A stretch of DNA of 64,000 nt, taken from assembly GCA_044892505.1 (NCBI GenBank), contig CM097882.1, forward strand, positions 106,516,001-106,580,000, written 5' to 3'. The translations under genes and the position numbers were made by a program. The first letter of the stretch is position 1, and every line of letters begins with the position of its first letter. Shown here one piece after another: positions 18,240 through 43,680 of this stretch. Source of the DNA: Schmidtea nova. Taxonomy: Eukaryota. Below the pieces are notes generated by a model, which worked only from the letters and a program-made list of their open reading frames with translations, was not told where the DNA came from and made no database searches.

Positions 18240-19115
18240 TGTTCGGTTATTAGTGTGAAGTCGGTAGTTTCTGACTCCCGTGTTCTCTTTCAATTACAAA
18301 ATAAACCAAACCCAACACAATAATTTTCTTTATTTTTTTCAAATGATCACAACTCTTTTTATCACAAAAAGTTACTCAGGCTCTGCACTCTTCGCGTGAG
18401 GGTAGAACACCCAATGGGATATCTCCCTCTCTGGTACGTAAAATATTAAGTTCAAGTTCTACTTTTGATTTCCTTTCAACGTCTCCTCCAAATATCTTCT
18501 AACAGTTTGAGATTCACTTTACGCCTAAAATTTATCTTCGACCAACTGGCAATTTCGGCACTTTGCTCTCCGTTTTTATACCATCTTTGTGTTGCCATTC
18601 TGTCGGTGTAATTGGATATTATCGAATCCGTCGCTTGTAATCGGATCTGATTAGCCCTGCTTGGTCGTAACTGGACCTTTGCCGTTTATGGTTTTTCCGG
18701 CTCTCCCCGGGGCATTCAATTAAATTTGATAGTTTAATGACCTCGCTGATGCCTCGGGTTTCCCACATTATTCGGATCTCCTACTAGCTCGGGTTTCCCA
18801 TTATCTCGGGTCTCCCATTAGCTCGGGTTTCCCACTAGCTCGGGCTTCCTATAGAATAATTAATTATTTTAATTAATTTGTATTTTCTAATTATTTCCTT
18901 CTGGGGGCCCCTTTTTATTTTTATATACCCATATTCGAATTCGTCTCGTCGTTTGGCATCCTCCCATACCAGTTTCCCCCACTCAATTTTTATTTTAATT
19001 TTTTATAAATTTTTTAATTAATGTTTGAACATTAATTATTATTTTTCCAATTTTTGTATTTTTATTGATTTATGCAATTTTAAATTTATTTTCTGTGATT
19101 TTCACAAACCCAACA
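18240..19115 (-). repeat. 3' LTR
   Basis: Direct repeat of 23085-23960; contains about five copies of an 18-bp CTAGCTCGGGTTTCCCAY unit (about 18750-18855), a TATAAAAA and an AATAAA on the - strand. Confidence 0.92.
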
Positions 19116-20199: not shown

Positions 20200-21122
20200 T
20201 TAATTAATGTGTTTATCGTCATCCAATTCTTCACCTTTATATCTCAGCACTATAATTCCATCTTTACCTAACATTTCCGCAGCTCTTTTACACACTTTTC
20301 GAACTTTCGTACACCAGTGTTCCTCTACATACTCAGTTTTCCTAATATCTTCATATTCTATTGCAATTGTTAACGAATTTAACTCGACTCTATCTTTTCT
20401 AAGCTCTTTACCCAATTTCTCATTATTCTCTTTAAACATTGTCTATATCCCGTTCTTCTAAACAAATAGGGTCGTATAACATTAGCAAGTTCTAATTTTT
20501 CCTTTTGCCCAAATTCAGAATCCTCAATTAACTTTACTATCTCAATAATTTCATTTTCGTCACCAATATATAAAACATCAGATAACTCCCTAACTATTTC
20601 CATCGGATCATTTTTTATCATTTCACTGTTACTCATCATGCTGGCTATTTGTAATTCATTTTTATTCCCTGGTATGAAACCACAGTCGATTACATATTCC
20701 TCATTTTCTAAATCTCTATTTTTAAACTTTAACTCGACTACCCAGCCTTCACATTTCTCTCTTAGTCTCCTTTTTAAATCTTTTACACGATCATAGGCTT
20801 CACAACGACAAGTAATCACATTTTTATCATTTTCATTAACAACATCAATAAAAATAAAATCTAACCATTTATTTTCTCGAAACGATTTTCCAAATTTTCT
20901 CATCAATTCTTTAATTTCATCTCTATTTGTTACATTTATTTGATAATAATTAGCACACAAATTAATCACGCCTTTCAATTTTCTCATACTTAACGACATT
21001 TGACTCAGGTTTTTAATCGATCCCAATATTTTAGATGATTCTACCACGCTAGCTTCTAGTAATTTCTCAAGTCTTTTCATCATCATGATAGCCTTTTCGC
21101 TTTCCAAATCGTTTTTGTACAC
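20200..21122 (-). CDS. ORF(s) downstream of gag encoding two ubiquitin/SUMO-like domains
   Basis: IFIDVVNENDKNVITCRCEAYDRVKDLKRRLREKCEGWVVELKFKNRDLENEEYVIDCGF aligns with ubiquitin [55 protein letters not shown]; second unit TKVRKVCKRAAEMLGKDGIIVLRYKGEELDDDK in the overlapping frame 20200-20439. Confidence 0.6.
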
Positions 21123-22575
21123 CCAGTTGTCGTGTCAGCTTCTGGCATGTCTTGCTGCGATCCATACATCATGTGATTATCCAATTCATCATCAGATTCA
21201 AACTTGGACATTAGGCGCTCCAAACGTCGACTCATTTCTTTCACTTGGTTTTCAATCTTTTCATTGAAATCATCTGATTGAACAAAAGCCACGTTGTCTG
21301 TCTGCAGTTTATCATTTTGGAATCTTATTGATTGTTTTAATATAGGTTTCTGAAATTTGTCGACATTCCTCGGGCATGATCTAGCCATGTGTCCATACCC
21401 TCTACATGAATAACATTGAATTTGACCTTGAAGGTTCACTCTATCTCTTTGTGGGGATGGTGAAGTTGATGGAGACCTCGATCTAGCAAAACAATTTCGA
21501 GAGACATGTCCTTTCCTTCCACAATTGTAACATTGCACATTATCATTATTACGCTGATCCTTAAAATTTAGTTTATTAAAACTTTCTCACCATTACCCTT
21601 CAACCAATCTGGCCACATTCGTTTTCGGCTTCGTTGAACATTATTTTTAGATCAGCATTGATTGCTGTTATGTCCCATCCTTTGACAATAATCACACTGA
21701 ATTGGAGTTGGACTTTTCGGAGATCTATTTTTGAACCAACATTGATTAACATGGTGTCCTATTCGTTGACAATGGCTGCATTGAATTGGCTTCTCTTTTT
21801 CATCAATTTGAACATTTGTTGATTTATTTGGCTCAAATCTTTGCCTAAACGTTGGTGATGGACTAATTGATTGCTGAAGCCGATTGTTTCTGACTGGAGT
21901 TATGGACCGTTCTCTGGGTTCATTAATGATGGCAAATGATTCTGATTTTGGATGTGAACTTTTCAGATTTAACTCAATTTTCATCGCCTTTTTGATTAAC
22001 TCATCAAAGTTATTGAAGTCCACATAACATAATGCCTTTTTGATCTCCTTTTTGACTCCCGTTAAGAACTGGTCTTGTAGCAATTCTTTCACCTGCATTG
22101 CCACTTCAATCTGTTCCGGCTTTACTTCGAATGCTTTCTCTGCAAGAGTAGTCAAGTGGTACGCAAATTCACTTACCGATTCCTCTGATTTCTGCACTCG
22201 ATTATAGAACTTCTGCCGCATTATCCGTTTTATATCCCCTCCAATGAGTTTCGCGGCAGAGGCATCTTTCAGTTTCATCCAGTCATTAGCAATAGTTCTT
22301 TTGTCAATTTGTTGCCACGCTTCTCTCGCTGCTCCCTTTAGACATAGTGGCAATCTTTGCACCATTGTCGGTTGGCTCCATCCATAGGCTGTAGCGCACA
22401 TGTAGTAATCCGCCATAAAATCAACGAATTCCACCGGATCGCCTCCATATTGATTTACTGGCAGTTTCTGGCAGCTAGCATAGTCATTGCCATTGCCGTT
22501 ACTGGTGGACATGGGCGTGTCATCATGATTGTTTGTATTACTCATTTTTATTTCTGGTTGTTTATTACTTCTCAA
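21083..22575 (-). pseudogene. gag: Gag with four CCHC zinc knuckles (one nonsense change, one frameshift)
   Basis: Capsid-like YGGDPVEFVDF..W...L.L.LKGAAREAW..FYNRVQKSEESVSEFAYHL..LAEKAF; knuckles CSHCQRIGHHVNQC, CDYCQRMGHNSNQC, CYNCGRKGHVSRNC, CYSCRGYGHMARSC. Confidence 0.92.
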
Positions 22576-23084
22576 TTCGTAATATGGTCGGTTTGGTACA
22601 ACTTTTTCTCTTCTAAATTTTAATATATCTATTATAAAATTTACCTTTATTTAATTTTCAACAGTATAAATCTTTCCACAATTATCAACAAACTTTTATC
22701 AATCCTTGATTCAATTTACCGACTGCTCACGTCGGAATTTTTACTCAATTTTACAATTTCAACGACTCAGAAGTTTACTGCAACTTTCAATTTCTTTTGC
22801 CAATAAATATTTAATCTCTTTTTGGAAATGCTTCACTGACTTTTGATAAATCAATAGTTTTCTTTTAATTATCTCCTTTCTTTTTTTGCAATGCTTCACC
22901 GACTTTGATCATGTCGGAATTTATCAAAAATTTTGTTTTAATTCTTTATTATTATTATTTTTTTTTCAACAACGTTTCACCGACTTTGATCACATCGGAA
23001 TTTATCAATAATTTTCTTTTAATTCTTTATTATTTTTTTTCAGCAACGTTTCACCGACTCTGATCACGTCGTGCTCACCAAATA

Positions 23085-23960
23085 TGTTGGGTTATTAGTG
23101 TGAAGTCGGTAGTTTCTGACTCCCGTGTTCTCTTTCAATTACAAAATAAACCAAACCCAACACAATAACTTTCTTTATTTTTTTCAAATGATCACAACTC
23201 TTTTTATCACAAAAAGTTACTCAGGCTCTGCACTCTTCGCGTGAGGGTAGAACACCCAATGGGATATCTCCCTCTCTGGTACGTAAAAGATTAAGTTCAA
23301 GTTCTACCTTTGATTTCCTTTCAACGTCTCCTCCAAATATCTTCCAAAGGTTTGATATTCACTTTACGCCTAAAATTTATCTTCGACCAACTGGCAATTT
23401 CGGCACTTTGCTCTCCGTTTTTATACCATCTTTGTGTTGCCATTCTGTCGGTGTAATTGGATATTATCGAATCCGTCGCTTGTAATCGGATCTGATTAGT
23501 CCTGCTTGGTCGTAACTGGACCTTTGCCGTTTATGGTTTTTCCGGCTCTCCCCGGGGCATTCAATTAAATTTGATAGTTTAATGACCTCGCTGATGCCTC
23601 GGGTTTCCCACATTATTCGGATCTCCTACTAGCTCGGGTTTCCCATTATCTCGGGTCTCCCATTAGCTCGGGTTTCCCACTAGCTCGGGCTTCCTATAGA
23701 ATAATTAATTATTTTAATTAATTTGTATTTTCTAATTATTTCCTTCTGGGGGCCCCTTTTTATTTTTATATACCTATATTCGAATTCGTCTCGTCGTTTG
23801 GCATCCTCCCATACCAGTTTCCCCCACTCAAACTTTATTTTAATTTTTTATAAATTTTTTAATTAATGTTTGAACATTAATTATTATTTTTCCAATTTTT
23901 GTATTTTTATTGATTTATGCAATTTTAAATTTATTTTCTGTGATTTTCACAACCCCAACA
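23085..23960 (-). repeat. 5' LTR
   Basis: See element entry; the PBS lies 4 nt inside the LTR end. Confidence 0.92.

Positions 23961-24397: not shown

Positions 24398-24472
<75 letters not shown>
24392..24472. repeat. (TA)n microsatellite
   Basis: About 80 bp of TA repeats with a short CATA interruption. Confidence 0.95.
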
Positions 24473-24476
<4 letters not shown>

Positions 24477-24606
24477 CATAATTATCTTTTTTCACCTTTG
24501 ATCTTTTTTTATTATTATTATCAATAATTCTCATAATGACTATAGATCAAAATTTTTTTTTATAAACAATAACACAATATTTCGGCACAGCCTTTATCAA
24601 GTGTGT
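24473..24606 (-). mobile_element. Further Penelope-like terminal fragment with hammerhead-like motif, embedded in (TA)n
   Basis: Nearly identical to 13987-14120. Confidence 0.75.
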
Positions 24607-27544
24607 ATATATATCTATATATATCTATATCTATATATACTCGTTAGACTTGTTTATTTATATATAAGAATCACCCCCATAGGTTGGAGTTTCCAATATA
24701 AGTATTAAAGACGTCAACAGTAGGCAGGTGGGCTATGTCAATATGATTGCTTCCTACTAATCTCCTTTAAACGGATTAATCTTTGTCGATAGAAGACTTA
24801 TTTTTTCTCTTAAGGCCAATCCTGGTCACAAATCTATCTCAACCTCAACACGTGATACAACTATTATATACAAAGACAAAAGAAAACACAAGTATATATG
24901 TACTAATTATACATAAATTCAACTAAATATTCTATTTACTTTATGTCACGGGTCCAATTCGCTTAATCCATATAAATACTCCAACTGACGCGTTAATTTG
25001 GCTGTTGTTTTCTGACCCTTCGTTCCTTTTAGCGCTCATAAGATATCGTTTAGGGGACACCGTTGATGGTTTCCCGACAAGTAGGTATATTGTTTATGTG
25101 TTGAGTAACAACTTCCGGGTACTAAATTTCAACGGCAGAATCTTGCTTGCAGACTCCTGTTCCACGAATTACTTCGTCATCAAATCCTTACAGTTTTATA
25201 ATTTGAGGCGTTCAATTTTAACTGTAACTCCTCGTTAACGCGTTTGGCTTAAATGAATCTCTGTTGGACCTTCCTCATGGCCAAAACTTGAGTGTCCTCA
25301 AACTCCTGAATTCTCCGTTTTATTCGTTCTTCAAAATGCCTATTCTATATCTCTTGCTGATAGGAAAATTTATTTAAGGCGACATATCATTACTGTAATA
25401 ACAAAATAATATACGAGCTTAAAATATGTGATATTATCATACAAATCCCACCTTACTCTTAATATCTACATCAAACTCCACTATTTCTGGTTATCTACGC
25501 AAGATGATCTCACCACAATTCCACTCGAATAAATTCTACTATCAAACTACTATCAAACATATTAAACAGTCATGCACAAGGAAAACTAATATATAAAACC
25601 AGACAACTATAATTTTCACCAAATACAAAACTTAACAGATTACATAGATATTTGTCTTTCATAGTGAGACTAAGTCTCTCTGACTCCGCCTCCGGGACGT
25701 AACGAGCATGCCCATGGCGTGGAACTCCATCTGTGGAATGTTTTTTGTATACGAAATTCCTCGGCATCCTGGTATGTCGTCTGTTATGTGATATTGATTG
25801 ATTATGTATGTTATAATTATTTTGTTTTGTTATTATAGTGTGTGCTGATGTGGAGGATTAAAGAGCCCAACAGTCTCCGGTAAAAAACTGTGTCGGGACG
25901 GTTGGGGTGCGTGTTGTGTAATTGGAATGTATTTGTGCGTGTCTATTTGTTACAATATAATTTAACTAAAAATAAATAACAAATAACTCAGAATTAATTC
26001 AACAAGATTTATTTAATTAACAAATTCGATATTGTACTCACGCAATAATTCTTTGTATCATACAACAAATTCATAAACATCTAATTCTTCAAATTCATAA
26101 AATTCGTTATTTTTTGTTATTTTCCTAAGCATTATTTTGTAATTTTTTCAAATTTGTAGTTTCTTTTATTTCTATAGAAATTTTATTTGATTCTAATACA
26201 TTATTGATTTTTATTTTGAATTTTAATTTGATATTTTTAATTTTTAATTTATTTTCCTTGAAATCATTTCTTCAGGCATATTTGCTAACAAAAAAATTAT
26301 AATAAAAGGGGGGTTATCATGTATCCGCAAGGACGCCCACAATAGTAGCGGTAGCCACAATAACAACAATAACATTAATAATAATAATGATAATAATAAA
26401 AATAATAAAAATACAGCATTAACATAGTCATTAATAATAAGGAAGTAAAAGGGACAGTCGGTAGCGTCATTGTCGACCCAAATCAACTAGTGCTGGCTTC
26501 GTCGCTAGACTATCTGGTTTTCTCTCTGTTCGTCCGACAGGAGTCTTTGTCCCTTCCCTATTTCCTGCTCATATTGTCGGAGCATCCGCTCAGTCTGATC
26601 TTCTATCAGAAACTGAAAAGGCCTAGAGATAGCATAACTAATCGCGAATAGAACCCTTAATCTCATGCATCAGGTCTTTCCTAGATATTATTCGCTCGAA
26701 ATTTTCCTATGGTGGCTACATTTTCATTTTTACCTACGAAAACTATTTTATTCAGTTTATATCAAATGAAGTACATCTACGCGATCGAGACTATCTAGAT
26801 TATTGCAAGTGATGTTGCTATTACTGATGAAATCATGAGTTTTCTCTTTTATTATCCTTATCCCAAATCGGGAACACAAATATTATATTTTAATTCGCGG
26901 TTCTTTTAGTTTTATTGGAAATTCGATATGTCGGTTGTATCTTCTGGGCGTGTTATCCGAAATACGATACCTAGTGTGAAATCAATCAGGGTCAATCATG
27001 TTTCTCTATGTTTTACGCCATTTGTCAGCTTAATGTGATGCTAATCGTAAATCGTTTACCTTTGTGATACTGTAGTAATCCTGTATGTGATATGACAAAG
27101 ACTCGAATCATTAGATATGACCGTGGCAGATTTATTCATTCAATATTAACAATTTTTCAATATCAATTTTGAGCTCAAAATTTGAATTTATTTGGAATTT
27201 CAAGGACTTACACTTTCCCCATAAATTACTTTCACTATTTTGTCTCACAACGCAATTTTTAAATGATGGTGACTACGACACATCGGGAACTTGTGAATGA
27301 GTAGCCTACAAAGTCCGTTTATACTAATTTTAATCAATCATGAGGGCACAAGTGAATTATTAATAATAAAATTTTAATAAAAGAAATAAAATAAAAATAA
27401 ATTACCAATTGCTTTCAGTTCACTAGCGATTTCAACAGAATAATTGCTAAGTTTCACTAAGTTTCACTGATCGTTTAATAAGTAGGCGGTTAAAACCAGT
27501 TCAGTTTTGTGTTAACAGTTAATAGTAATAGTTGTTAGACTGAC

Positions 27545-27996: not shown

Positions 27997-30390
27997 TAGG
28001 TGGATTGTTGACCGTCAATATGACCTTGACTTTGTTATGGATCATCATCAAAAACTCATCACATAAAACATTATTTAACCATCATGTTACCCACTACAAT
28101 GTAACGTGGTTAATGCAACAAATATGTGATATCCGCAAACAGTGAGCGTCGAAAAATTCGAAACTATGATTGTACGAATGTCACAATGAGATCAAGGGCA
28201 ATCGAAGGAAGGTCCTCTGCCATTTCGTCAGACGATAACTTCTTTATTTTCTAAATTGTAGTATAATTCGAAGCAAAGTTCGGATTCGGATATCGAACTT
28301 TTTGGAGTTACCCAATAAGTCGAGCTTCTTGACGCCGCTTCCGACGAAAGTGGACTTGTTTGCTGGGTCACCATTTCTTTGGGCGATCGATTGCTGGATT
28401 TCTATGTAGAATAATTCCTATCCGAGTCGGGAATAATTCCAAGGCAGAAAGCCCGGTTTTCGGCAGCTGTATTGCCAACACAATGCCTGTGTCTATCTTC
28501 ATTTGGGCAATCTCGGCATCGCGGTTTCGAATGGTCAGTTTCAGCGCCTATATCTGGAACGTATCTTCGGCTGTCTGCTCGTGCAGTAACTTTATCTGTT
28601 TGCACATCTTCTCGATACCGTCCACGTTCATCCACATAGATTCAATCTTTTAGCACCGAGAGCGGAATTTCTTCATGCGTTTCGTTATGGTCCGGAACTC
28701 ATCACAGAGGAGTTTCTTCTCCTCTTCCATCTCGACAAAGCAAATCGATAATCGCCTATATTCATTTCTGTCATTTTTGCCATCAAGTCCATTTTGGCTT
28801 CCATTTTATGTTTTAGGGATAAAGTATAAATGATAATTTTATCAAGCACATTTCCATGTAAGCATCCGCATTTATCTCTCCTTAAACAATCAATATCTTA
28901 ATGAAATAGCTCCTGAATTCCGGCTCTAAACGGCGCTTATTCCCATCTCCAAAAGGATTTATTTTCAGTGGGCGTTGAAAATTAGGATAAAATCTGTTTG
29001 AACTTAATTAGCCTTAATCTAAGACCATGACTATGTATTATAATTCTAAATTGTACTCAAATCAAATTAAACATAATAAAAAAAATTTAAGTTTGCGCCG
29101 AGGCCTTAGTAACAGCAACTGCGAATTACTTAGGAATTTTATTAGTTTTGAACCTTGGATTTCCTTTTTACCCTTATTTAAGTTTGTAAAATTATTGAAT
29201 AATTTAAATTATATTACGGTGTTGAATCAGGACTACCCTCCTTCGTTTTTTCTAGAGAAAAATCGTGTTAAATTATTAAATCTATATAACTAATTTTAGA
29301 TGGTTATCGAAAAATTAAGAGAATCTGCTTGATCAGATTATAGTATGTTAAGCTTTGTTGCATAATCATTTTATAGATTATAACTTATGTTAATTTTAAG
29401 AAAACGGATCTCTGATATCGAAACTGATGGCCAAAGAAGTAGCTTGAAAATTTTTAAAATAACACTGTTTACCATTAATATGTTTAGAATTTGGATTTAT
29501 TTCCTAAAAGAAACGTCTTCGGGTTCGGATTGAACAATTCGATATATTTAACAATTTCTCATGCATCTGTCACTAATGAACAAAGTTCTAAATCTCAGTG
29601 GATTTCACTCAATCTCGACCCTATCGGTGGAATTTATCAAGACAATCGCTCTCGGATTTTTCATACTCTCTCTGTGCTCTAATGGAAATCGATTTACGTC
29701 TCAGTTTATAAATATTACAATCGTAAATCAAGGCAATTTATAAACTGATATTATTATGATTTATAAGTACCGGTGCAATTCATGATTAATAAGGTTAATA
29801 ATTTTATGTGGGTCGTTGTAGAGGATGTCCTTAGATTTTCTATGTAATACAACCAGTTCTGTGGAATTTTATCAATTGACTAACTAATTTTTTTGAGTAT
29901 AATCACCAAATGCATATAATCTTAATGACTTAAAAATTCGGTCTTTCTACCTAATATAGCTGAAATTTAACGGGTGTTATGAACTGCAAAATGATTACTA
30001 CTATAGGATGTTATAAACGACAGGTAGAATAATTAATGTTATAGGATTTGATTGAATGAAATCTTAGATTTTTTTAAGCAGATTGGTTGATTTTATGGGT
30101 GCTTATGAATAAATGAATTCATTTTGGATGAATAAGATGTTATTGGATCAAACGTGTTTATGTGTAATATGCTAGATTTTATGGATGTTGGTGAATGGAT
30201 GAGACTTTTTTTGGATGCATGGAGTGTTATTGATTGAAACTTTAGATTTTTTAAATAATATAACTAAGGATTCAATGATTATTTTCTGTGTGATGATGGG
30301 ATGTAAGAGGTGTTATTCGGTGAAATATTTGTTGAGGTTCCGAGAATCTCAACCTAAGGTTCTTATATAAATAAATAAGTCAACACTGGT
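27997..30390 (-). mobile_element. C-type unit: D remnant, CCGAGGCCTT motif, family-C ORF, conserved 3' block
   Basis: C ORF about 28804-28300 (RMKKFRSRC*KIESMWMNVDGIEKMCKQIKLLHEQTAED...IDTGIVLAI...RRKRRQEARLIG); block 28220-27997 homologous to 45912-45693. Confidence 0.7.
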
Positions 30391-31457
30391 TCGTATTAAA
30401 TCTTTATTACAATAACAAAATAATAATTACCAAGCTAAATCAAAATCAAACAACTTCTTTCAACTCAAAATTTGTCTGTGTGAATGTGTTATGATTGTAA
30501 TATGTAATGCGTGAATGCTGCTCTGAGCTCGATTTACTGTATGCTCTAATTTAATTTTATAGTCGATAACAACTACAAGATTTTTATTTGCAGTGATTTT
30601 TGGGTGATTTGACTGAAAAATCAGTTTGCTAATATACCAAATTTCAGTTGGCATCACATTTCGAGTGTCAACATACTTTGTTTGTCAAAAGTCAATAAAA
30701 TTTCTGTTTTAAAAGTGCAAACTTTAATGGTTACTATTTTTGGAATCATCTCTTTATCCAGCTCTTTATCCTCTTTAATGTTAAAAAGGCATCAATTTAT
30801 ATCGGTTTGGCCTTTATATATCGTTAATTATACTATTTTCTATAGTTACTTCTTTATTTATCTTTTATTGCTTTTGTCAATTTTGTTGTGGTTTTGGATG
30901 GGTTAAAACAAAAAGATAAATACGCTCTAGGGATACCTTCATCCAAACCTAAACATAAAATGCTAACGTGACACACAAGCACCCTCGACTATTTCCTTGG
31001 AATAATCGAGTTGGAAATGTGCAAGGTGTTTGAACAATGATGGGCAGGTGAGCTCTATTGCTAAAACTACTCCCCATTTATGTTCACGGGTTCGTCGCTG
31101 CCGATAGAAGGACTTACGCTTTACTTTCACTTTAATTTATCTGAACTCATTAGCTTTCATTTTATTTTTTCTTTCTGCCCCCTTCTTTACAATATCAACA
31201 GGTAATTCGAACTAACTATATATCGATTTTACTTTAATATTCCTAATGTTTATCATTTATCGAATTTTGTTAGCGCTTTTGCCAATTTGTAACTTGTATT
31301 TACTTAAGTTTTTTATCTTTAATTTGAAATCTTTTAATGAATACTTTATTTTAAATACTTTACTATAAAATAAATACAAAACAAAACAAAACAAAAATGT
31401 AATAAAACCAAATGTTTTGCACACCACAATGATATAATTAAATAATGCTCGGCCATT

Positions 31458-32048
31458 CTATTCAAAATACTTGAGGAAATCCTCGTCAGCTACTGACAAA
31501 TCCGTGGATAGATCTATTTCTGGAAATTCCTTAGTGTGATGTATTATCTGCTGCATGACCTGTTTTTTCCATCGGTGTTGTCTTGCGCCCATCTTGTTTT
31601 TCTTCTTCTTCTTGATTTCAATAGTTGTTACATTTTTTGGTGCAGCTTGAGTTGTTGTTTCCTGAACCTGAGATGGTTCTTCGGTATTGGTACCTTTTGA
31701 GCACGCAGCCTTCTCTTCCGACCAATGTTGATAAGTAATTGGTCGGATGAGTTGTTTTAATTCTCGATCGATGAACGATGTTGTAACTGACTTTAAACAC
31801 TTTCTTAATTCAATCTTCGTTGCGTCGAGCTCGGTTTTAAATTCATCTACGGCTCGCTGTGATCGCTGATTTTTATGAAGCTGGGCCTTCATCTTGTCTG
31901 GACTAAACCAGCTTTTCCGTAATTGAGAGATTGTAGTTTCTGCTTCTTTTATCCTTTCGGATTTTCTAACAATTTCCTTCTCAAGGCTGCGAACGATTCG
32001 CCAAGCTTTATCTAATTCGGATTGCAAGTTTATTGAATTGTTGGACAT
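31458..32048 (-). CDS. Family-B coiled-coil/Arg-Lys-rich protein (196 aa), intact
   Basis: LRKSWFSPDKMK...ATKIELRKCLKSVTTSFIDRELKQLIRPITYQHW shared with 35500-36033; basic tail KKKKNKMGARQHRWKK; conserved 3' block at 31119-30890. Confidence 0.8.
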   Translation of the reverse strand: MSNNSINLQSELDKAWRIVRSLEKEIVRKSERIKEAETTISQLRKSWFSPDKMKAQLHKNQRSQRAVDEFKTELDATKIELRKCLKSVTTSFIDRELKQLIRPITYQHWSEEKAACSKGTNTEEPSQVQETTTQAAPKNVTTIEIKKKKKNKMGARQHRWKKQVMQQIIHHTKEFPEIDLSTDLSVADEDFLKYFE

Positions 32049-32779
32049 TTTCTATAAATCAATACGGTTCATTAATACAAATTTGGTTTGATTTGAATAA
32101 ATCTGTTAACTTTCATAGTTTCCTTTGACAATTTCTCCGCGATTTATTTAATTATTATGTCCCAATTAGGAAGTGAAATAACATACATGCTATAATTTCG
32201 ACACTGTCGCTATATACAGCGATCAGATAAATACATTTATAATCTTTATTTCATTAATTTATGCCTGTGCTACGTACAACAATCAGGATAATAATTTACT
32301 AAAATTAAATGAAAACAATTAGGTTCTTCTGCCCTATGTACAGGGATCAGGATAAGTGATCAAATTTCATTATTATTTAGTTTGGTTGATTTATGCTAAA
32401 AATGCGATCAACTTTGTCTAGTTGATTTCTGTGTGGTAGATCATCTACCCACCTGAATTATTGTATTAGAGTTATTGATTTTTGCATTCTAATGTGCACT
32501 CTAAACTTATGTTCTAAACTTTGAACGATGATGCTAGCCGCTTTATGCAACCAAACCCCAGATGTGACAATCTCAAAGAACATGGTAATACTTTGCTGCC
32601 AAAGGTGAAATTTAAATTCAAAAATAAAACTATTTTCATATAAAAACCAAATCAAACTGGCTATACTGCTCAGTGATAATTCGTTAAAGCATGGTTAAAA
32701 TAATCCTACCCCCCTCGTGGCACTTGATACCAGTCGGACGGCCTAACTGTACGGAGCAGTTATCTACTCGGCACAGTCT

Positions 32780-32992
32780 GCCTCCTTCCATTGATTTCAC
32801 GATGGACAGGAGCCCCCTTGAATAATATATAACTTCATGATGTAAAATAAATACATTATATAAATAACTTCAATTCGCCTCCTTCCACCGATTACACAGT
32901 GGACAGGAGCGCAAGTAAATCACAAATAATCATTAAAAACGCAATTTCAATAACGTTGCCTCCTACCACCGATTACAGAGTGGAAGGAGCGC
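32780..32992. repeat. Three tandem stem-loop repeats
   Basis: GCCTCCTTCCA...TGGACAGGAGC-type units at 32780-32813, 32877-32912, 32958-32992. Confidence 0.8.
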
Positions 32993-34646
32993 AAATCAAA
33001 TCGTAAATCATAAAACATTTTCATCGAAAATTATATTTAATGAGCAATGACAATAACAGAAAAAAATGATATCATAATAGCTTATATACAATCAAAAATA
33101 TCAAACTTCATACCTTTGTTGATCCAAATTGTCTGTTCAAAAATTTCAACTTTTAGCATAAAAAACTTAGGCCTTAAAATTGTCTGAATCTGCATCAGTA
33201 TTTATACTGATCAGATCAGTTCATTAACCAATCAGCGTGAAGCTGATGTTCTAACATAATTTTATTAAAAATAAAATCAATTTCATTAAAAAATAATCAA
33301 TTTCATTTTCTTGTTTAAATTAACTTAAAATTTCTTCTTTAATTCCTATTTTAACATAAAATAATTATATTTTAGACTTTTATCTTTCATTTTTTCGTTA
33401 CATTTCAACATATCTTATTTATTTCTAATCTTTTGTTGGGCCCGCCAAATCACCTAAAATCACAATAAAAGAACAAAAGTATAAAACAATAAGGAAATAA
33501 TAAACATAAAAATAACCATAAAAAAACAAATTAAAAATAAGAATAAAATGACAAATAATATTTGATAAGTTTCCAGTAAAAGGAAATTGTGAAAATAAAC
33601 CGGTAAACAACAGCAAAAGGGGGCCTGAAATAAGAAAAGATAGAATAAATTAAAATAATAGTACAAATAATTAATTAATTACTCGAAAAATCAGGACCAC
33701 CCAGCGAGAAACCGGAAAAGGAAACAAAATAATGTTTAGGTTTAAATAAAATAATAAAAATACTTTGATGGACGGTCTGATCCTGATTGGTCAATCCAAC
33801 CAGACGGATCAGTATAAATACCGATCCGAAAATCACAACTTTAACTTTTTTACTAAAACTTAACTGTTAGATAAAATTTTTGCAAAACGCACTTTTTACT
33901 AGAACCAATACCACAAACGTTTTCGAGAAACATTCTTAATTTTCAAACCCGAAGAAACATTCAAGTACGGAACGTAACATTTTATTTTATTTATTGTTTA
34001 TTTAATCTTTGATTGTATATTAATGTTAATGTACCCATGATTTTTCATCTATTATAATTTTATGAAACTTTTGATTTTTGCTATCTTAATTTATTAATGC
34101 ATATAGTTATGCTTCCTAGGCTGCTCACGCGGCAAGGGAGCCCGAGTCGTCGTCGTGGGGCCTCAGGGTCTCACATGGCGGTTCTACCTTTTTCTAAAAA
34201 TCATACAATCATTTTGAAAATCTCAGTTTAATCAACAAGTTCTACGTCGAAAGTTTTATTTTTGATTTTATAAATCCGGTTGCACAGTGGACATAGCGTG
34301 AGGGCTCGCGGAAAAGATTTGAGGGCTCCCAGAAGGTGTGAGGTTTACGACGAAGGGCAGGAAACCGACGACCGGTTCCCCCATTAGAATGCGTATATTT
34401 TAAACCCAGGAGAGTAATTGAGGAGCGAAAATTGGGTAAGAATTTACAATAAATAATCGATCTTGGTGAAAATTTCGTAGAGTCCAAAGTACACCAATAT
34501 GACTATCGATACAATTAACTTACAATTCCAAATTATGATGACGATTCGAATTCCGATCGTAATCGACGGAATTCCAATTGGTAATATAAATAGATTTAGG
34601 CCGATCGCTGTATATAGCGCGGTAACCTTGAATATTTTTATCCTGA

Positions 34647-35318
34647 ATGTCGTACATGGCACAGGGAAATGTAAAAGATGTTAATCCGACCGTGGTATAT
34701 CGCGGCGAAGACCAATTAGTTCCCTCAAAAGTTAAACCATTTTTCTCTACTGAATGCTATGTTTATTACCAGTTAATTCCCCGACAACAATTTTTTGGTT
34801 GCATCATACTTGCTCAAATGTTTAATAAACTAATACAGATGTCAACAGCTGATGTTATGAAAAGATTGACCCAAATTCGAAATTTGGAACAAGGGAGTGC
34901 AGAGAGTGGAACGGTCTCTCCATTCAAGGAGCTACCTGCGCCGATATTGCGGACCATAAATGCTCAAATGTACAAGTGGAGGCGCGGATTTGGTCGTAAA
35001 TGCCCGTTTTCCATATGGGCTGGAGGAAACGATCGGATACTCTACCGAGGAGGACCGAATTGGCCAATTTCACCAAGGCCTTATTCGAGGAAATTTGGGC
35101 GGATAATCATTATGATCAATGACTCAGAGGGACGACCGGGTCGAATAATTTATTGGGGACATATCCCTCGCCGGGAGTTATGCCAATTGGGACTACAAGC
35201 GTTTCTGCCGCGGAAACCGTTTGGCAAGGAATGTCAGGATGGGCAAACCCTATTTTCTTGGGCTCGCCTTCGACGGATGCCGATCAACAACGAACTACAC
35301 AGCCTATTTCGGCGATAA
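34647..35318 (+). CDS. Family-A protein of unknown function (true start possibly ATG 34840)
   Basis: PILRTINAQMYKWRR...YRGGPNWPISPR...RIIIMINDSEGRPGRIIYWGHIPRRELCQLG aligns by eye with 40503-41144. Confidence 0.65.
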   Translation: MSYMAQGNVKDVNPTVVYRGEDQLVPSKVKPFFSTECYVYYQLIPRQQFFGCIILAQMFNKLIQMSTADVMKRLTQIRNLEQGSAESGTVSPFKELPAPILRTINAQMYKWRRGFGRKCPFSIWAGGNDRILYRGGPNWPISPRPYSRKFGRIIIMINDSEGRPGRIIYWGHIPRRELCQLGLQAFLPRKPFGKECQDGQTLFSWARLRRMPINNELHSLFRR

Positions 35319-35499
35319 AATTTTCTGACAATGATAATTATAAATAAAAATCTTATTGTTTCTTAATGGTCTTTGTTTTTGAATTTTTGAATTATTAAGT
35401 CTATCATGTTCTCGACCAAAAAATCATGTACTCATATTGTAATTTTAAGCATATTTTAACCATAAAGCGACAAGGCAGTTATTTTAAATCAATTATAGA

Positions 35500-36033
35500 A
35501 TGAATACTGATCTGGCACAAAGAGAGTTGGAAAAGATGTGGCGAATCCAGAGAGCCCAGGACAAGGAAATGGGCCTCCTCAAAGCGCAACTATCCAAAGC
35601 CGAGGCGCAAGTCACCTATTTGCGAAAAAGCTGGTTCGCTCCGGCTAGAATGAAGGAACAGATTGGGAAAACCGAACGTGCCCAGCAAACCGCAGCCGAT
35701 TATAAGATGGAATGGGAAGCTACCAAAATAGAGCTTCGGAAATGCCTCCATTCAGTGACTGCCTCTTATATCGAAAGAGAATTGAGAGATCAAATCCGGC
35801 CGGTCACATATCAGGAATGGACGGCGGAAAAGAAAAGCGTCAACTCGATTGGCACGGACGTCGATGATCTCATTGAAGACCGAAACAAGCCAGTTCCAGC
35901 AATCAACCCGTCCACTTCAACTGCAAATGCGCACCCGAAACGCAAGCGCATCGGGCAGAAAAGGCGAAGGCAAAGAAAACTATTCGCGCAACGATTGCAG
36001 AACCAAGTTGACGGCCTGCACAAAATGACATAG
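35500..36033 (+). CDS. Family-B coiled-coil/Arg-rich protein (177 aa), intact
   Basis: LRKSWFAPARMKEQI...QTAADYKMEWEATKIELRKCL; tail PKRKRIGQKRRRQRKLF; AATAAA downstream. Confidence 0.8.
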   Translation: MNTDLAQRELEKMWRIQRAQDKEMGLLKAQLSKAEAQVTYLRKSWFAPARMKEQIGKTERAQQTAADYKMEWEATKIELRKCLHSVTASYIERELRDQIRPVTYQEWTAEKKSVNSIGTDVDDLIEDRNKPVPAINPSTSTANAHPKRKRIGQKRRRQRKLFAQRLQNQVDGLHKMT

Positions 36034-36330
36034 GAGGAATTATTAACAGAAATATTTCCCCCAGTCGGAGTTTTCACCGAACTAATTAAAGATTAAATAA
36101 ATTCTCGTATTCTCGTCAAATTTTTGTTGTTTACTTAAATTGGTTTAGTTAACTTAACGAATAATTAGATACCTGTAATATAAAAATATAAATTCATCAC
36201 ACAAAATACCTAAGAAAGGTAAATAAATAATTAAGTGAGCATTATGTTAAAAACCCTTCATGCAGAATAAGAGATGTTAAAGACAAATTTTCTGAAAGTT
36301 TATTGTGGAGTACATAAGCAGATGATTAAA

Positions 36331-36470
36331 GCGTAAGTCCTTCTAACGGCAGCAATGAACCCGTAAACATAAATGGGGAGTAGTACTAGCGATAGTGCTC
36401 ACCTGCCCATCATTGTTTAACCACCCTGCGCATCACCAACTTGATTATATAGGGAAATAGTCAAGGGCGC
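36331..36470 (+). ncRNA. Conserved structured cis-RNA element 3' of ORF B
   Basis: Homologs at 15843-15975 (+), 31119-30978 (-), 42779-42645 (-), partial about 56640-56690 (+); compensatory base changes in stems (see findings). Confidence 0.6.
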
Positions 36471-39400
36471 TTGAGTGTATAGTTGCAATTTTATGTATGA
36501 TCATGGATGAGGGATCCCTAGTCATTGTTAGAACATTTTTCATCTAACCCCTCCATGAACCCAGCACTTTTTATAATATTAATTATTTTATTTCTATTTA
36601 TTCTAATACTTTGCATTTAAATCTTTAGGATAATATTATCTTACTTTATCATATTTATTTTATTCTATTATTATTGTTTATTTATTTAAATGTTGGTCAT
36701 TTGGTGGACCCAACAATTTTTTGTTTTAATAATCATTAATTTTAGTTACCATATAATTGTGATTGACATTTAATTTATTTTTGATGAGTGTTATGTTTTC
36801 TAAATAACCATAAAATTCTATGGGAAAATATTATGAAATGAAATGATAAAAATTTCTTGAATTGTAATTTTATTTATTTTTATAAATTTCACATGCATAT
36901 AATATATACCCATTAGTATAGAAACCCGTATATACTTTAATTAATTTTGACTTCACGTGTTTTAAATATGAATTATTATGTTAGTTTTTCTTATTTAAAT
37001 TATTCCCAATCGCTATGTTCTCCTAAAAGCTATCAAGGAGCAAGATGAAATTATTATTTATTTCGATATGAATTTCAATATGAATAGCACTATCTATAAT
37101 AATTAAGAAAAAAGAACTAAGCTGTAATAATTTATATCATAAATTATTTATTTTTTTAATTATGTTTAATTTGCACTTTTAAGTGTTTTTTTCATTACTG
37201 ATTTGATAGATTTTTTGAAATTCCAGAAAAATTCGAGCACTAAGTGCTTTTTGTTTAAGCAGTAAATATTTAAGCACTTAGTGCTTTTAAATGAAAAGAA
37301 ATTTTCTTTAAACTAATAATAATTATAATAATAACAATAATACAATAATAATAATAACAGCAACAACAATAATAATTTTAAAACTACAATAGTTAAAACA
37401 ATAATAGTAATAATAATTTCAGCAATAGCAGTAATTTTAAACTAATAATAACAATATTTTTTTACAATAATAGTAATAATAATAATATTTATTTCACTTA
37501 CTCACACATTACTACATCTAAACAAAAAAAATTTAAAATCAATAAATTAAAGAACACCATCAAAACCACAGTTAATTTAGTTCAACAGAATAAACTTAAA
37601 TGATCAAGTTTTTCAAAAGTGGTCACGATTGTCGTTTCGTCATTGTTGGCTTGATTAGTTCCGCTTGTGATCTACATATATGTGAATTCTGTACTTATTG
37701 GTACCTAATGTGTAATATTTTAATTTTATTACACTTATGACACTTCCATCTTCTAACATATTTATTTCCTCTGTAAGCAATGTAACTAGTTTTATAGGAT
37801 TTTGTTGAATGAAATATGTAGTTTATAAGTAGTATAGTTGGATTTATAGATGGTTATGGATAAGATACTTAGTTTGGGTGCATGAGGTGTTGATTGATGA
37901 AATGATTAACTTGATTGCAAATATAGATGCTTGGGTCACTTCTTGATTTTTAGAATTGGTATTTTATTGAATAAAATATATGATAGGATGCTATTGGGAT
38001 TTTATAAAGTAAGAATTAAATTTAAAATTTATAATTTTTACAAAATGGTTAAGGTAAAATTGAATTTACAAATGACGAAAATAATCATGAAAAATTAAAT
38101 TTATAATTTTTGTAACAATAAGGGATTTTGGGATTTTTAGGTAACTTACAGATTTTTCAGATCACATAAAATTTTATTAATAGATTTGCTGTCTTTTATC
38201 TAGAATTTCGGTTGGAATTAATTTTGATTTAGATTAAAATTTTCCCATTAAATTATAAGTCAAAATATTCCAAATAATTCGCTTATAATAGCAATGGTAG
38301 TTAAATTTAAGTTTTTAATCTAAAATATTTTATTACCTAATTTTAAAAGTTGAAGCATACTCTAGTAGCTAGAGTCTAGCTAAATAAAATTAAAAATAAA
38401 TAAAACTCATCAACTCAAATCAACCCAATCACATTCCAAGTCTTTGATGCCATAATATAGAGCCCATAAAACGTTAATCGACACTAGGAGTTATAGTTAT
38501 CGGTTAAAAAATTTAATTGATATTGAGACATTTCTTTCTATAGTTTATAGTGTTACGCTATGCCTCTCACTTTACTAATTAATTTATCAGATCTTCTTGA
38601 TTATTCTTAAAATCAAAACGAAAATTATTAAAATTTACTCCGTTTCTCTGGTATCTTAGCAACGATACTAGTTAAATTATGGAAATAAAGAAGTCTAAAT
38701 CACCCTCTGGTTGTCAAAAACTCAAGTATCATACTGATAATTTAAATTATATCAAAAAAATATTGGAAACTTCTGATTTTTATTTAATATCAAACTCAAA
38801 TAAAACAAAACTATAAAAAAATTTATTTTTTGAAAATCACTAGCAAGTCGGTAAATTCTCCAGTCATACCGATTTTCATTGGTCGACGTCATTATAGAAA
38901 ATGATTTATATAATATAGATGTCAATTTGCAAAAAACAGATTCCCCTTTCATGGTAGTAAGATATATATGCCTTGTAAATTTATGAATATTATTTTATGG
39001 TTTTTGAATTTTTATGTTTAATGAATTTTAATACAATATGTTTGGTTAGAACAAACATACAGTGGCGGACTGACCCGGGTTGCCGGGTTGCGTTAGCAAC
39101 CCGGGCCCTTTCCAAATGTAAGGGATCCGGGCCCAATGTAGAATAAAAATATATATTTTAGTTAATACCTATTGATTTGTACTTTATGTTGGGCCAGGCA
39201 AATCAGGCATCATCTAGAAAATAATATGAAATCAATAAAATAAATGTACAAAAAACAATAACAAAATAAATTACCAACACCAAGGTAGCAAAATAAGCGG
39301 CATGATCTAAAGGTAATAAAACCATAAATCAAAACAACATAAATCTTAAAAACTCACCCATGCGAATCAGATAAAATCTGAAAATGACAGCATGTGGGCG

Positions 39401-40502
39401 GACATCACCGGCCTGAAACAAAAATAAAAGAAAATTAAATAATAACAAAAGAAAATTACCGCATGAGTTAACAAACAAATCACTGAATTAAATTAGACAG
39501 CGAAAAGCCGACAAACACAAAAGAATAACAAGACATACACACATACTCGATGCTGATTGGCCGACCAACAACACCAAACTAGTATATATATACTGAAGTC
39601 AAATCAGTATTGGTATGTCATTTTTTACCGAGTGTAAGTTACAGTACCAACTGATAACTCGTAACCTTGCGAACAATATTGTGAATCAACTGGAAATAAA
39701 AGGTATAATTTGAGTTGTTATTTGATTGATTTTAAACCCTCATATTAAAATGAATAAGGATCGTCCCGGAGGCCTAATGGCCTGGCGGGACTCTCGGCCT
39801 TTCAGCACAACATATTTTCATATGAGGTGCTGATGCGGCGGGACCATAAGTGTTATAAATATTTCTTGATTGGGAGAGGGGTGCACATAGGATATCAATA
39901 ACCACCGTACCAATCATTTTTCCGTCAAGGTAAAGGTAATTCCGAATACATTCTACTAGTCATTGAAGGTTCAAGACAAAGGGTACTCATAAGTAGGTAA
40001 CAACTCGAAATGTCGAATATACATCCGATAGCAGATATGTAACTAGTAGCGAGCGGTAGGGTTAATAGCACATTCCCGACAAGGTACAAATACATGAACC
40101 CATCCTACAGGGGATTACCCTAAATACGAGGCCCAACACCCAAAACCGCCCAGTAAGTGACGATCATTATTAGTTATTGGCAAGAGTGATGATGACCAAA
40201 TGGGGGATGCCTGATAAAGATAAAAAGCATAAAGATAATCTCGTAAATAATGATGTGTCGATCGCGATGCAGAAATAAATTGATTAAAACTGAGTTCAGA
40301 GTAAATCAGTTCAGAATGATCTAAACTCACAACAACATCGTCCTACGCGGTAGAACCAGCGATCGTGATATGACCAACTTATCAGATAGATGAAACCTAC
40401 CTGAACAAAAATCACCACCCGTGTAGCTTAGTCGCGTATATATAGCCGATCAGTGTTGACATCTGATGATAATAAAACCAAACCAATTTCTGTTCAGACA
40501 AA

Positions 40503-41144
40503 ATGAAACAAGAGAAACTTTGGAAATCGCCCCTGGTCTCGCCACCCTCATCAAATGAGAGTCGAACCTATCGGAGGAAGCGGCAGGTCCGATCTATCCA
40601 TCCTGTGGCTAATCGCAACTACATGACCGAGATCCAAGGAGAGAAGGACGCTCCACGGCCAATCGCCGAACAGGCGCGTAGACATTTACGTCGATGGACA
40701 CGACGGCACATGAACGTGGCCGCTAATGTTCCAGCCTGCACATTCCGAGTGCAATTACGATGGGAGGGAGACGTAGACTGGACGTCATCACCTAGGCAGC
40801 CGGAGCAGAGACCCACAAGGTGGTTCTCTCAATTCGTAGACGAATCCGGACAACCTCGCTGGTTGTTAAGTTCAGGAGCTATGACCGGTCCCTCACTGTA
40901 CCAATTCGGATATCTGCTACTGGATAGGCCCCGGTGTAGCGACACTGGGGAAATCCAGCTCTACCCGAACGCTCCCGGAAGCGTCACTTTGGATCTCCAT
41001 CCTGAACCGAATGATCTCCGCTTATGGGAGGTGTTTATACACCAAGGCAAGTTGAGTTGGCACCCATCCCCGGAGCTATATCTCGCAGACGGGACCAGAC
41101 GAGACGATAACCAGGCCGACCAAGAATTACGATCTTTCTGCTAG
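40503..41144 (+). CDS. Family-A protein (213 aa), intact
   Basis: GC-rich intact ORF; RWFSQFVDESGQPRWLL, YQFGYLLLDRPRC, EVFIHQGKLSWHPSPELYLADGTR conserved with 55130-55710. Confidence 0.8.
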   Translation: MKQEKLWKSPLVSPPSSNESRTYRRKRQVRSIHPVANRNYMTEIQGEKDAPRPIAEQARRHLRRWTRRHMNVAANVPACTFRVQLRWEGDVDWTSSPRQPEQRPTRWFSQFVDESGQPRWLLSSGAMTGPSLYQFGYLLLDRPRCSDTGEIQLYPNAPGSVTLDLHPEPNDLRLWEVFIHQGKLSWHPSPELYLADGTRRDDNQADQELRSFC

Positions 41145-41358
41145 GAGAAAGAAGGCCATGGCCGAAAATCCGGAGGTCAAACCAATCATGTGTTATAATT
41201 AGAAATAAAAATCTATCTTTGTGAAAACAATCTTGTTCTGTTTTGTGAATGAATGTAAACGAGTGCGTGAGTAAGGAACAGTTGGGTGATACTAAAAATA
41301 CGAATAGGGAAACAAACAGATTTTTCGTTACATAAACTAAATATCCAATTTTGTAGAT

Positions 41359-41922
41359 ATGAACACCGAAAACTCACGCGATTATAAGAAAGAGGCTCGT
41401 GAGTACAAGGCTCGCTCCAAGGTCCTCGAGAGCCGCTTACGCCAGTTAAGCGAGGAGCATCGGCGGGTGAAGACTACGTGGTTAAACCCTGAGAGGGTCA
41501 AGGCAATATTACAGGCGAGATATCGCGCCGAACGGACGGCCGAAGACCAGTCGAGGGAAGTGGCCGCCGTCAAACTCGAGTTGCAAAATTATCTAAAGGC
41601 CTCAACGCAGGAGTTCGTGACTCAACAGTTACGTCCCATGATCAGGGCAAGCACGTTCAATAGATGGGTAGACACGATCGCTGTCACCACAAGCACTCAG
41701 ACAGAAACCGAATCAAACACAAAAATGACTACCCCATCGATAGTGATAACTCCGGAAGGTACTAAGCGGACCAAGCGTCGAAACCGCCTCAGGGCGAAGA
41801 AGCGTCGCGAGCGTCAAGCCTATGCAGAGCGTTTAGGCATCGAAGTCGATCTATTAAGCGGACTCTCCGAAAAACAGTTGTTGGATGTGATCCGGCCATC
41901 TATTTTGTTAAATTATAAATAA
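41359..41922 (+). CDS. Family-B' coiled-coil/Arg-rich protein (187 aa), intact
   Basis: KTTWLNPERVK...RTAED...VKLELQNYL...QQLRPMIR; tail KRTKRRNRLRAKKRRERQ. Confidence 0.8.
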   Translation: MNTENSRDYKKEAREYKARSKVLESRLRQLSEEHRRVKTTWLNPERVKAILQARYRAERTAEDQSREVAAVKLELQNYLKASTQEFVTQQLRPMIRASTFNRWVDTIAVTTSTQTETESNTKMTTPSIVITPEGTKRTKRRNRLRAKKRRERQAYAERLGIEVDLLSGLSEKQLLDVIRPSILLNYK

Positions 41923-42599
41923 ATGTATCATTGCTGAATGACTTGATTTGTTATCAGGTCTCGCTTTCCACTCAAATAATTTCCCTTTACACATGGGTAG
42001 GTTATCAAGGTGGATGAGAATTTTCGGTTATATTACTGAGATGGATTTCGTGTTTTGATGTTTGGATGGGAAATAGTTTACAATAGGGATTATTGCGTCT
42101 TGTGATGGATTAATGATGTAAAATGTAATGATTGTGTGGTGATATGTATGTTTGCTTTGATAGATATAGTATGGATTTTTCAGAAGAGTGATTGCGTGTA
42201 GTGGAATGTGGGATAAATCGTGAGGTTAGATAGGCAATTTTACGATGGATGAGATTGAATGAGTGCTTGTGAGATTTCCTGGAAGTATGATGCAGATTAA
42301 CGTTATTGAACGAAATGATATAGTGTGTGTGTGTTGATGAATGAATGGATTTTTGTAGTGTTATATATGGATATTACTAATGAATGAAATGGATGTTGTA
42401 TTTTGCAAGGATTTTATGGGTTAATTTTCATGAAATGAATTATGGATTTTACAATTATATAAATATACAAAGGTATTTTTAAAATTTTTATAAACTTTTT
42501 GTAATTTATTATACAATTAACTTTCGAATTAGGAAAATTTATATAATATTATATATTTTAGATTTCGTTTTTTACATTTTAACTTCTAAATTCTATAAT

Positions 42600-43680
42600 A
42601 CTGCTGGGTTCATGGAAGGGTTAGGAAAAATGAAATACTAATTGGTGCTATTGACCGTTCCCTATACGATCAAGTTGGAACTGCGCAAGGTGATTGAAAA
42701 ATGATGGGCAGGTGAGCTCCATAGCTGAACTACTCCCCATTTATTTTCACGGGTTCACGCTGCCGTTAGGTCTTATGCTATTAATTTTTACTCAATATTT
42801 AAAGGTGATTATTTGATAAATACTATAATATTTTCGGAAAAATATTATTTACTTCATTTAGAAACTATCTTAAGCTATAGCAAACCAAAACGAAAATGTA
42901 TAAACACCGAAAAAAAATTTTATTTTAAACAAAAATCTAGAAAATTCCAGGTGAGTGGAAAAATCTCAGGTAGCAGGTCTACTTCAATCATTTCTGACAT
43001 TTGATCAATTTTGACATGCAATTGTTGCGCGAATAACTTTTTCTGTATCCTGCGTTTCGAACCAACTCTTTTTCTTTTCTTCGGGTTGTTGCCTCAATGT
43101 AGGACGTCGTTACAGAGTGGAGGCACTTGCGCAACTCGATTTTGGTGGCCTCCCACTCTACCCTGTACTCATCTGCGGTTTGTTGTGCCCGTTCGGTACG
43201 TGTTATTTGCTCCTTCATTCGGGCTGGAGCGAACCAGCTTCTACGCAGATATTGGATTTGCGCTTCGGCCTTGGATAATTGGGCTTTTATTTGTTCGATT
43301 TCTCGTTCTAGACCACGTCTAATTCTTAGAGCTTTGTCTCGTTCGGCTGCATGATCCGAGGTTCGATTCGTACTATAATAAATAAAGTTTACGTGACCAA
43401 TTTGTTAGGAAGACAAACAATTTAATTATTGTTAACATTTAAGTAATTAAGTAGTTAACATTTAAGCACTTTAATTTTTGTTAAATTTAGGTACTTTTCT
43501 GTTTTTCCCTCTCCGATTTGTTGTTGGCCTCCTCACCTATTCAATTTATTTTAAACTTGCAGGTTATTTATTATTACTTAATTATTTAGGTTTTTCTATA
43601 CCTCTTTAAGGTTATTTTATTATTTTGTTATAATTATTATCCTCTTTTATGCATTTTTAGGCTATTTGGTGGGCCCAACA
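42600..43680 (-). mobile_element. Internally deleted B-type unit
   Basis: 5' terminus TGTTGGGCCCACCAAAT (43680 downward); B ORF about 43360-42985 closely similar to 35500 copy but missing the middle; conserved block 42779-42601. Confidence 0.75.

Follow-up and report, generated by a model that had tools for sequence, protein, structure and literature searches.

The sequence analysed here, called the window below, is a stretch of 64,000 nucleotides of the Schmidtea nova genome (1.25 Gb; contig CM097882.1, positions 106,516,001 to 106,580,000) and consists of AT-rich, repeat-dense DNA. An initial annotation had marked in it 11 copies of a gene for a coiled-coil protein, of two types named B and C, and all of them were recovered by protein profile searches. 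The B profile matched at 15.2, 31.5, 35.5, 41.4, 43.0 and 56.0 kb and the C profile matched strongly at 28.3, 46.2 and 50.5 kb. The copies at 9.3 and 16.6 kb are decayed and their own profile scores are weak (E 2e-4 and 1e-5); their genomic relatives match the C profile with E down to 9e-14. These 11 genes belong to one conserved family which is carried within the long terminal repeats (LTRs) of giant (~30 kb) Burro-type gypsy retroelements. Searches of the same genome with the genes B35, B31, B41 and C50 gave at least 150 matches each, and the 4456-9278 first-look candidates per search are not copy numbers.

The intact gene B31 (31458-32048, minus strand, 196 aa) lies in a B31-type solo LTR on the same strand (30884-36715, target duplication ATTT), which also holds a core promoter with conserved CCAAT and TATA (33198-33235) and, at its 3' end, a conserved structured RNA block (30922-31119). 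A B35-type solo LTR is inserted in the 5' part of this repeat on the plus strand (33434-36566; 3133 bp, TGTTGGG...CA ends, target duplication CTTT). It has the same kind of promoter (33783-33821), a second gene here termed X (34839-35318, 159 aa from a conserved ATG, under purifying selection), the B35 gene (35500-36033) and a conserved RNA block (36331-36526). A B41-type LTR without its 3' end is also found on the plus strand (39187-41951), with a gene X of 213 aa (40503-41144) homologous to that of B35 and an intact B gene of 187 aa (41359-41922). The other B copies are a minus-strand solo LTR with an internal deletion (42602-43680, target duplication ATAC; frameshifted gene at about 42990-43371, RNA block 42628-42778), the decayed 3' half of a plus-strand B41-like LTR (55139-56825; X remnant 55139-55668, B remnant 55968-56484, RNA block 56604-56778) and a decayed plus-strand gene of a shorter lineage (15190-15546) with its RNA block (15839-16022), together spanning 15190-16022. 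Three C copies are placed on the minus strand. One is a solo LTR with an internal deletion (50046-53350, target duplication TTAT; gene 50493-51059 with one in-frame stop, RNA block 50047-50270), and two are LTR 3' ends, at 45695-46729 (frameshifted gene 46160-46729, RNA block 45696-45919) and 27999-28800 (decayed gene 28296-28800, RNA block 27999-28222). The copy at 16600-17072 (plus strand) is C-like and strongly decayed, and the one at 9306-9650 (minus strand, locus L208, E 6e-13) is a decayed member of a lineage, D, that bridges B and C.

Eight of the 11 window copies are thus broken by stops or frameshifts and a ninth ends early. The latter is the 35.5-kb copy, which stops after 177 codons against 198 in most relatives, so that only two of the three B copies first annotated as intact, those at 31.5 and 41.4 kb, can be kept as such. 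The annotated protein length of 175-200 aa does not apply to the lineage related to the 15-kb copy (139-156 aa). The AAD/AED motif given as characteristic is variable, and the proteins are better recognised by [ST][WY]F-x-P-x-x-[MV]-K, which lies between two helices. An RNA block, which had been described downstream of each gene, is present for eight of the 11 window genes and was not found for the copies at 9.3, 16.6 and 41.4 kb. Weak block matches at 24715-24800 and 17789-17846, both on the minus strand, probably represent further decayed lineages.

Many matches elsewhere in the genome form same-strand pairs 20-40 kb apart. Eleven of the 12 gene pairs of this kind that were examined are LTR pairs, 98.7-99.9% identical, flanking a Burro-type interior; the remaining pair (E4) was rejected as it belongs to a larger duplication. 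The LTRs measure 3.2 kb (B35), 3.3 kb (B41), 3.6 kb (B15-like) and 5.45 kb (C), start with TGTTGGG and end with CA, and a 4-bp target duplication was seen in all eight elements with both outer ends read. A primer site follows each of the 11 5' LTRs (perfect over 18 nt in nine, with one mismatch in one and shortened in one), and the nine perfect sites are exactly complementary, over these 18 nt, to a tRNA-Pro(TGG) encoded in the same genome. Since the B/C gene lies inside the LTR, the solo repeats left over carry the gene too. Four copies in the window are such solo LTRs (B31, B35, B43 and C50), and blastn detected no interior sequence of the elements there. Two other readings of these repeats were rejected. 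The TGTTGGG...CCCAACA ends seen in the window are not the inverted termini of a DNA transposon, being the 5' ends of two nested LTRs in opposite orientation, and the LTR anatomy and the lack of an Rfam match over the RNA blocks speak against a Terminon/Penelope element with hammerheads.

The Burro elements have been described as giant gypsy-like LTR retroelements of planarians (PMC6431247), and our assignment rests on this published description. The elements described are ~30 kb long with very high copy number, and encode one polyprotein with a Gag (CCHC), an in-frame Env-like fusion domain before PR-RT-RNase H-IN and ankyrin repeats, as well as TRAF/MATH, BIR and RING accessory ORFs (PMC6431247). 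In the interior of one B35 element, Pfam searches identified in succession a zinc-knuckle (CCHC) Gag, a Monjiviricetes-type fusion domain, PR, RT, RNase H, integrase and ankyrin repeats, and also RING and TRAF ORFs. The order PR-RT-RNase H-IN was established by Pfam in elements E3 and B41a, and the C elements have an additional BIR-RING ORF. In contrast, the available part of the published description makes no mention of LTR ORFs, of a layout with one acceptor per ORF, of a structured LTR RNA or of RT-less derivatives (PMC6431247). While Burro is already known, the genes inside its LTR, the acceptor-per-ORF layout and the LTR RNA are apparently undescribed, as our literature search found no account of them; the original Burro description may show these ORFs. 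Burro elements are dominant in their host genomes and have been proposed to be proviruses.

RT, RNase H and integrase are present in seven of the 11 giant elements and absent from four, and both full C elements examined have no gag, env, RT, RNase H or integrase. The LTR pairs of these C elements are still 99-99.9% identical (RT-less elements: L077-L082, L091-L095 and L166-L168). Lineages B35 and B41 share 97-98% identity in the env-like region (L030 versus L084/L088; dS 0.26-0.30) while the domains on either side are saturated, which we read as a recent module exchange. In one C LTR an internal deletion of 3.4 kb is followed by seven tandem copies of the C gene with a unit of 862 bp (L209:2711-9962), and a two-copy version is located nearby (L210:2049-4960).

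Both LTRs of an element contain the B/C gene. It comes after a conserved CCAAT/TATA, and 390-504 nt separate it from the end of the LTR. In the B35, B41, B31 and B15 lineages these boxes are located at LTR position 340-400 and their flanks are otherwise unalignable. Donor-like GT sites follow 100-200 nt past the TATA in the B lineages; in the C LTR a TATA-like box lies at 594, and a pattern script found no donor-like site after it. Gene X (159-213 aa) lies upstream of B in three lineages (window 34839-35318 and 40503-41144; L166:3037-3537) and is absent from the B31 and C LTRs examined. Its profiles match at 82% and it has no known fold. Palindromic GCTGTATATAGC boxes are repeated upstream of X or B. 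Lineage-specific GC-rich hairpins of about -35 kcal/mol were also observed ~300 nt past the TATA (L029:3140-3215, L087:2985-3085, window 34115-34190 and 39757-39850), and these are candidate response elements.

The ORFs share an acceptor-like start. A YAG lies within 7 nt upstream of the ATG in 16 of 20 ORF classes, LTR and internal ORFs included, versus 17% of 6397 background ATGs (p 1e-9), so that full-length RNA probably needs protection from splicing. Moreover TGTAAATA occurs 17-20 nt past the stop in seven of 15 internal ORFs (~0.8% expected) and in none of eight LTR ORFs. The internal accessory ORFs are arranged like cistrons, with the next ORF often within 50-100 nt (L029-L031, L077-L082 and L087-L089). 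From this arrangement we infer a multi-gene unit in which a common short leader exon would be joined by cis- or trans-splicing to many acceptors. If transcription starts near LTR position 400-410, X and B/C would be the first cistrons of this alternatively spliced unit, its earliest products and the sole products that a solo LTR could make. The U3/R/U5 borders were inferred from promoter conservation only. In four runs, which are contigs of unknown kind, none of the 15 joints listed is of the GT..AG type, which is uninformative on splicing.

The helical N-terminus and the helical basic segment expected for these proteins are both borne out in the model of C (pLDDT 71, pTM 0.25). This has helices at residues 3-62 and 66-117, with a break at the conserved Trp, then a disordered linker and a helix at 153-179 spanning the basic segment. 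The most basic 18-mer has a net charge of +10 to +11 in all six lineages tested; the basic tail of B31 is lysine-rich and resembles a plain nuclear localisation signal (NLS). In B31 and B35 the tails are acidic-hydrophobic (net -7 and -4), and this acidic tail is absent in B41, B15 and C. A C-terminal motif of the type [VI]D[LI], which we take to resemble a SUMO-interacting motif, is present in 13 of 25 B and 13 of 16 C proteins. No conserved leucine-rich nuclear export signal (NES) was found in the last 50 residues of these 25 B and 16 C proteins, where an NES-like pattern occurs in eight B and no C proteins. The long helices in the C monomer model are compatible with a coiled coil, which may oligomerise.

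The proposal that B and C form one superfamily gained its support from lineage D and from the RNA block common to both LTR types, and we take their homology, which is very probable, as established. The four B lineages match one another with HHalign probabilities of 97-99.8%. The direct match of B to C is weak, with a probability of 7% (E 0.005) one way and 44% (E 2e-4) the other way. Its 73-82 columns are in register and nearly ungapped, the score was reached by one of 150 heptad-preserving shuffles, and no control, whether a reversed profile or one of six other ORF families from the elements, went below E 0.036. Matches of a search with a poor frame of the 9.3-kb copy led to lineage D. In a relative of the 9.3-kb copy the B motif TWF-x-P-x-K runs on into a sequence of the C type. 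A profile of lineage D, built from 22 of 25 loci with stops read as the letter X, reached a probability of 98% with C and of 90-93% with B, and none of 100 shuffles came near. In addition, a DNA profile of the B-type 3' block matches the C-type blocks with E down to 2e-6, and the two types of block can be jointly aligned in collinear order.

Purifying selection on B/C, suspected from the intact copies, was confirmed by dN/dS values of 0.04-0.23. Pairwise NG86 estimates for unsaturated pairs were 0.05-0.16 in B35, 0.09-0.16 in B31, 0.13-0.23 in both B41 and the B15-like lineage, and 0.04-0.21 in C (0.04-0.07 among C50-type copies); gene X gave 0.11-0.26. The copies were found by protein search and the pairs are not independent, but dS reaches 1.4-2 or more among B/C pairs and a dS tenfold dN is no artefact of copy sampling. 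At the same time B/C is the fastest-changing gene of those compared between lineages, with 27-38% identity versus 92-95% for RT, 53-82% for gag and 37-73% for TRAF.

The possibility that B/C is a known Gag or Env fragment was not borne out, because B/C queries match only LTR copies within elements. No Pfam model, those of Gag and Env included, matched at 0.001, and no homologue of B or C was found among 5.8 billion proteins. The sole match among 1.84 billion proteins, to a repetitive bacterial surface protein, was judged to be due to chance. Atlas matches were all below 0.9, no match was obtained against PDB sequences, and Foldseek comparison of the C and X models with viral structures gave nothing at E <= 0.001. 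Rev, Rex and other viral proteins showed no sequence or fold similarity to B/C. For gene X, whose model is poor (pLDDT 49), no homologue was found either.

The structured RNA predicted downstream of the gene is real and covarying. The block is ~200 nt long and occupies the last 200-250 nt of the LTR, and 17 of 25 predicted pairs show compensatory change among 19 B-type sequences. When scored with four extra misplaced pseudoknot pairs included, 90% of cells were paired, against 74% in shuffles and 35-47% when the structure was slid. One helix covaries at six of seven pairs across B and C in 40 of 49 sequences, the nine decayed ones having been dropped from the covariation and tRNA counts; within the C blocks alone covariation is scant (5 of 42 pairs). 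Comparison of the blocks with the Rfam covariance models gave nothing at E <= 1. Readings as an HDV-like, pistol or twister ribozyme were dropped by eye as conserved catalytic residues are missing, and a pseudoknot between a loop and the 3' end was rejected (80% paired, no covariation above shuffles).

The block ends ~40 nt before the 18-nt perfect complement of tRNA-Pro(TGG). In retroviruses, part of U5 is complementary to the 5' T-arm of the tRNA used as primer and serves as a primer activation signal (PMC11251516). Here a 7-nt motif of the block is complementary to positions 50-56 of tRNA-Pro in 27-34 of 40 sequences, but with 23 of 150 shuffled tRNAs an equal number of conserved pairs arose somewhere. 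As the block adjoins the primer site and has this motif, it may not be the target of the B/C protein. Moreover it is conserved across lineages whose proteins are only 27-38% identical; if it were a response element, one would expect it to change together with the protein. The place and the conservation of the block agree with a U5 structure for priming or packaging no less than with a response element. Long tandem arrays of tRNA-Pro(TGG) genes with a period of 308 bp were observed at L178-L183 (G000:C1:459.6 Mb), and the T-arm/3'-end pattern has 1111 matches genome-wide.

HIV Rev, HTLV Rex and HERV-K Rec are small proteins in which a helical region for oligomerisation is combined with an arginine-rich helix, encoded by genomes with many acceptors, and in the case of Rex and Rec the structured RNA is within the LTR. 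B/C resembles them in its small size, in its helical region, in its arginine-rich helix (C model; lysine-rich in B31), in the many acceptors and in the LTR RNA structure. It differs in the lack of detectable homology, in the long coiled coil, in the lack of a conserved NES and in a gene placed wholly within the LTR, downstream of the promoter. Because of the missing homology and NES we place B/C outside the Rev and Rex families. MMTV sag, HIV nef and foamy-virus bel are accessory ORFs in or near a long LTR which evolve faster than pol and lie in U3, upstream of the start site. B/C is also an accessory ORF of a long LTR that outpaces pol in evolution, although here the ORFs are downstream of a conserved TATA and upstream of the primer site, in the putative R/U5. 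This layout differs from the usual U3 overlap of nef, sag and bel, and makes each intact solo LTR a candidate transcription unit. Ogre and Retrosat2 carry extra ORFs as well, but their ORF0 lies upstream of gag-pol and, in the part of the source available, is not described as inside the LTR (PMC3485330). A precedent for a function is CERV of the C. elegans gypsy element Cer1, a novel nuclear protein made from a spliced mRNA and required for export of the unspliced genomic RNA (PMC10309623). Unlike B/C, which has 140-200 aa and is encoded in the LTR, CERV is a large protein that contains G-like and Cys-finger domains and overlaps gag (PMC10309623).

By analogy with these systems we tentatively propose, as a reading that may well prove wrong, that B/C is a nuclear, oligomeric RNA-binding regulator of the element RNA, similar in function to Rev, Rex and CERV and unrelated to them. 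This guess draws on the number of acceptors, the location of the gene close to the promoter, its basic helix and the precedent of CERV. The basic helix would bind element RNA and/or serve as NLS, and B/C could let the full-length RNA escape splicing or early 3' processing and exit the nucleus. B/C would then be a candidate second invertebrate Rev-like factor after CERV; the RNA block is a new covarying LTR RNA.

Foamy-virus Tas and VANC are models for an LTR transactivator and an anti-silencing factor, respectively, and B/C might similarly be a lineage-specific activator of transcription or anti-silencing factor that acts on the DNA or chromatin of its own LTR. The divergence of B/C, fastest between lineages, is in step with the lineage-specific LTR sequence, and the palindromic GCTGTATATAGC boxes upstream of X or B would suit such a role, as would the [VI]D[LI]-type motif and the acidic-hydrophobic tails of B31 and B35. 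Burro is also under PIWI chromatin silencing (PMC8532177). Nevertheless this function appears doubtful, as B41, B15 and C lack the acidic tail, a DNA-binding fold was not detected, and the basic segment lies C-terminal to the coiled coil and ~40 residues away from it, unlike in bZIP proteins. The elements also hold many host-modulating cargo genes in the same acceptor-ATG format, and B/C could be a host-directed product like those of the TRAF, BIR-RING and RING genes, with a tail that is merely an NLS and an unrelated RNA as neighbour. Such a role requires no host homologue, and RT-less elements keep cargo genes as well. However, it is unlikely, since it explains neither why every lineage has the gene at a fixed place at the 3' end of the LTR nor the conserved multi-arginine helix.

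The location of the block next to the tRNA-Pro(TGG) primer complement, common to B and C LTRs, raises yet another function, that of an RNA chaperone or packaging adaptor on the U5 block, which would anneal tRNA-Pro or load the RNA into the particles of other copies. The gag-less C elements, which are young and abundant and have kept the gene, also speak for it. We consider this still more unlikely, because the gag-bearing elements already encode CCHC zinc knuckles, a diffusible factor could be borrowed from helper elements just as RT and integrase are, and the T-arm complementarity is statistically weak. That the frames are non-functional by-products of repeat amplification might be suspected from the eight broken window copies and the ninth that ends early, but such decay after insertion is expected of solo LTRs. 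This last explanation is refuted by dN/dS of 0.04-0.23 with dS up to 1.4-2 and can practically be dismissed.

The Rev-like proposal can be extended in a more speculative form, which we regard as possible and hardly probable. The Burro LTR would be a self-contained early-gene cassette, formed by promoter, leader exon, X, B/C and structured U5 RNA. In it B/C would work as a new switch of the Rev or antiterminator type, carrying the 27-kb RNA past some ten acceptors and the 3'-processing signals. Since the cassette would survive recombination intact, solo LTRs would be potential mini-genes in their thousands and could license full-length and RT-less elements in trans.

The window also contains sequences of other origins. 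A gypsy-type gag with CCHC knuckles, unrelated to the elements described above, is present on the minus strand at 20382-22650 and is flanked by an 882-bp direct repeat (18234-19115 / 23080-23960). Two ORFs at 5065-6296 (minus strand), one of them weakly matching a Pox_A32/AAA ATPase, suggest a Polinton-like fragment. Between hairpin-like repeats at 10868-13400, a decayed frame with an SF3-helicase-like Walker A was recognized by eye near 11.3 kb and is possibly a parvovirus-like remnant. The perfect hairpin of ~100 bp at 13984-14220 derives from an inverted duplication and gave a spurious miRNA match; part of it is repeated at 24470-24608. Finally, a fragment at 6357-6701 (plus strand) matches the TATA-binding protein (Pfam TBP, E 2e-9).
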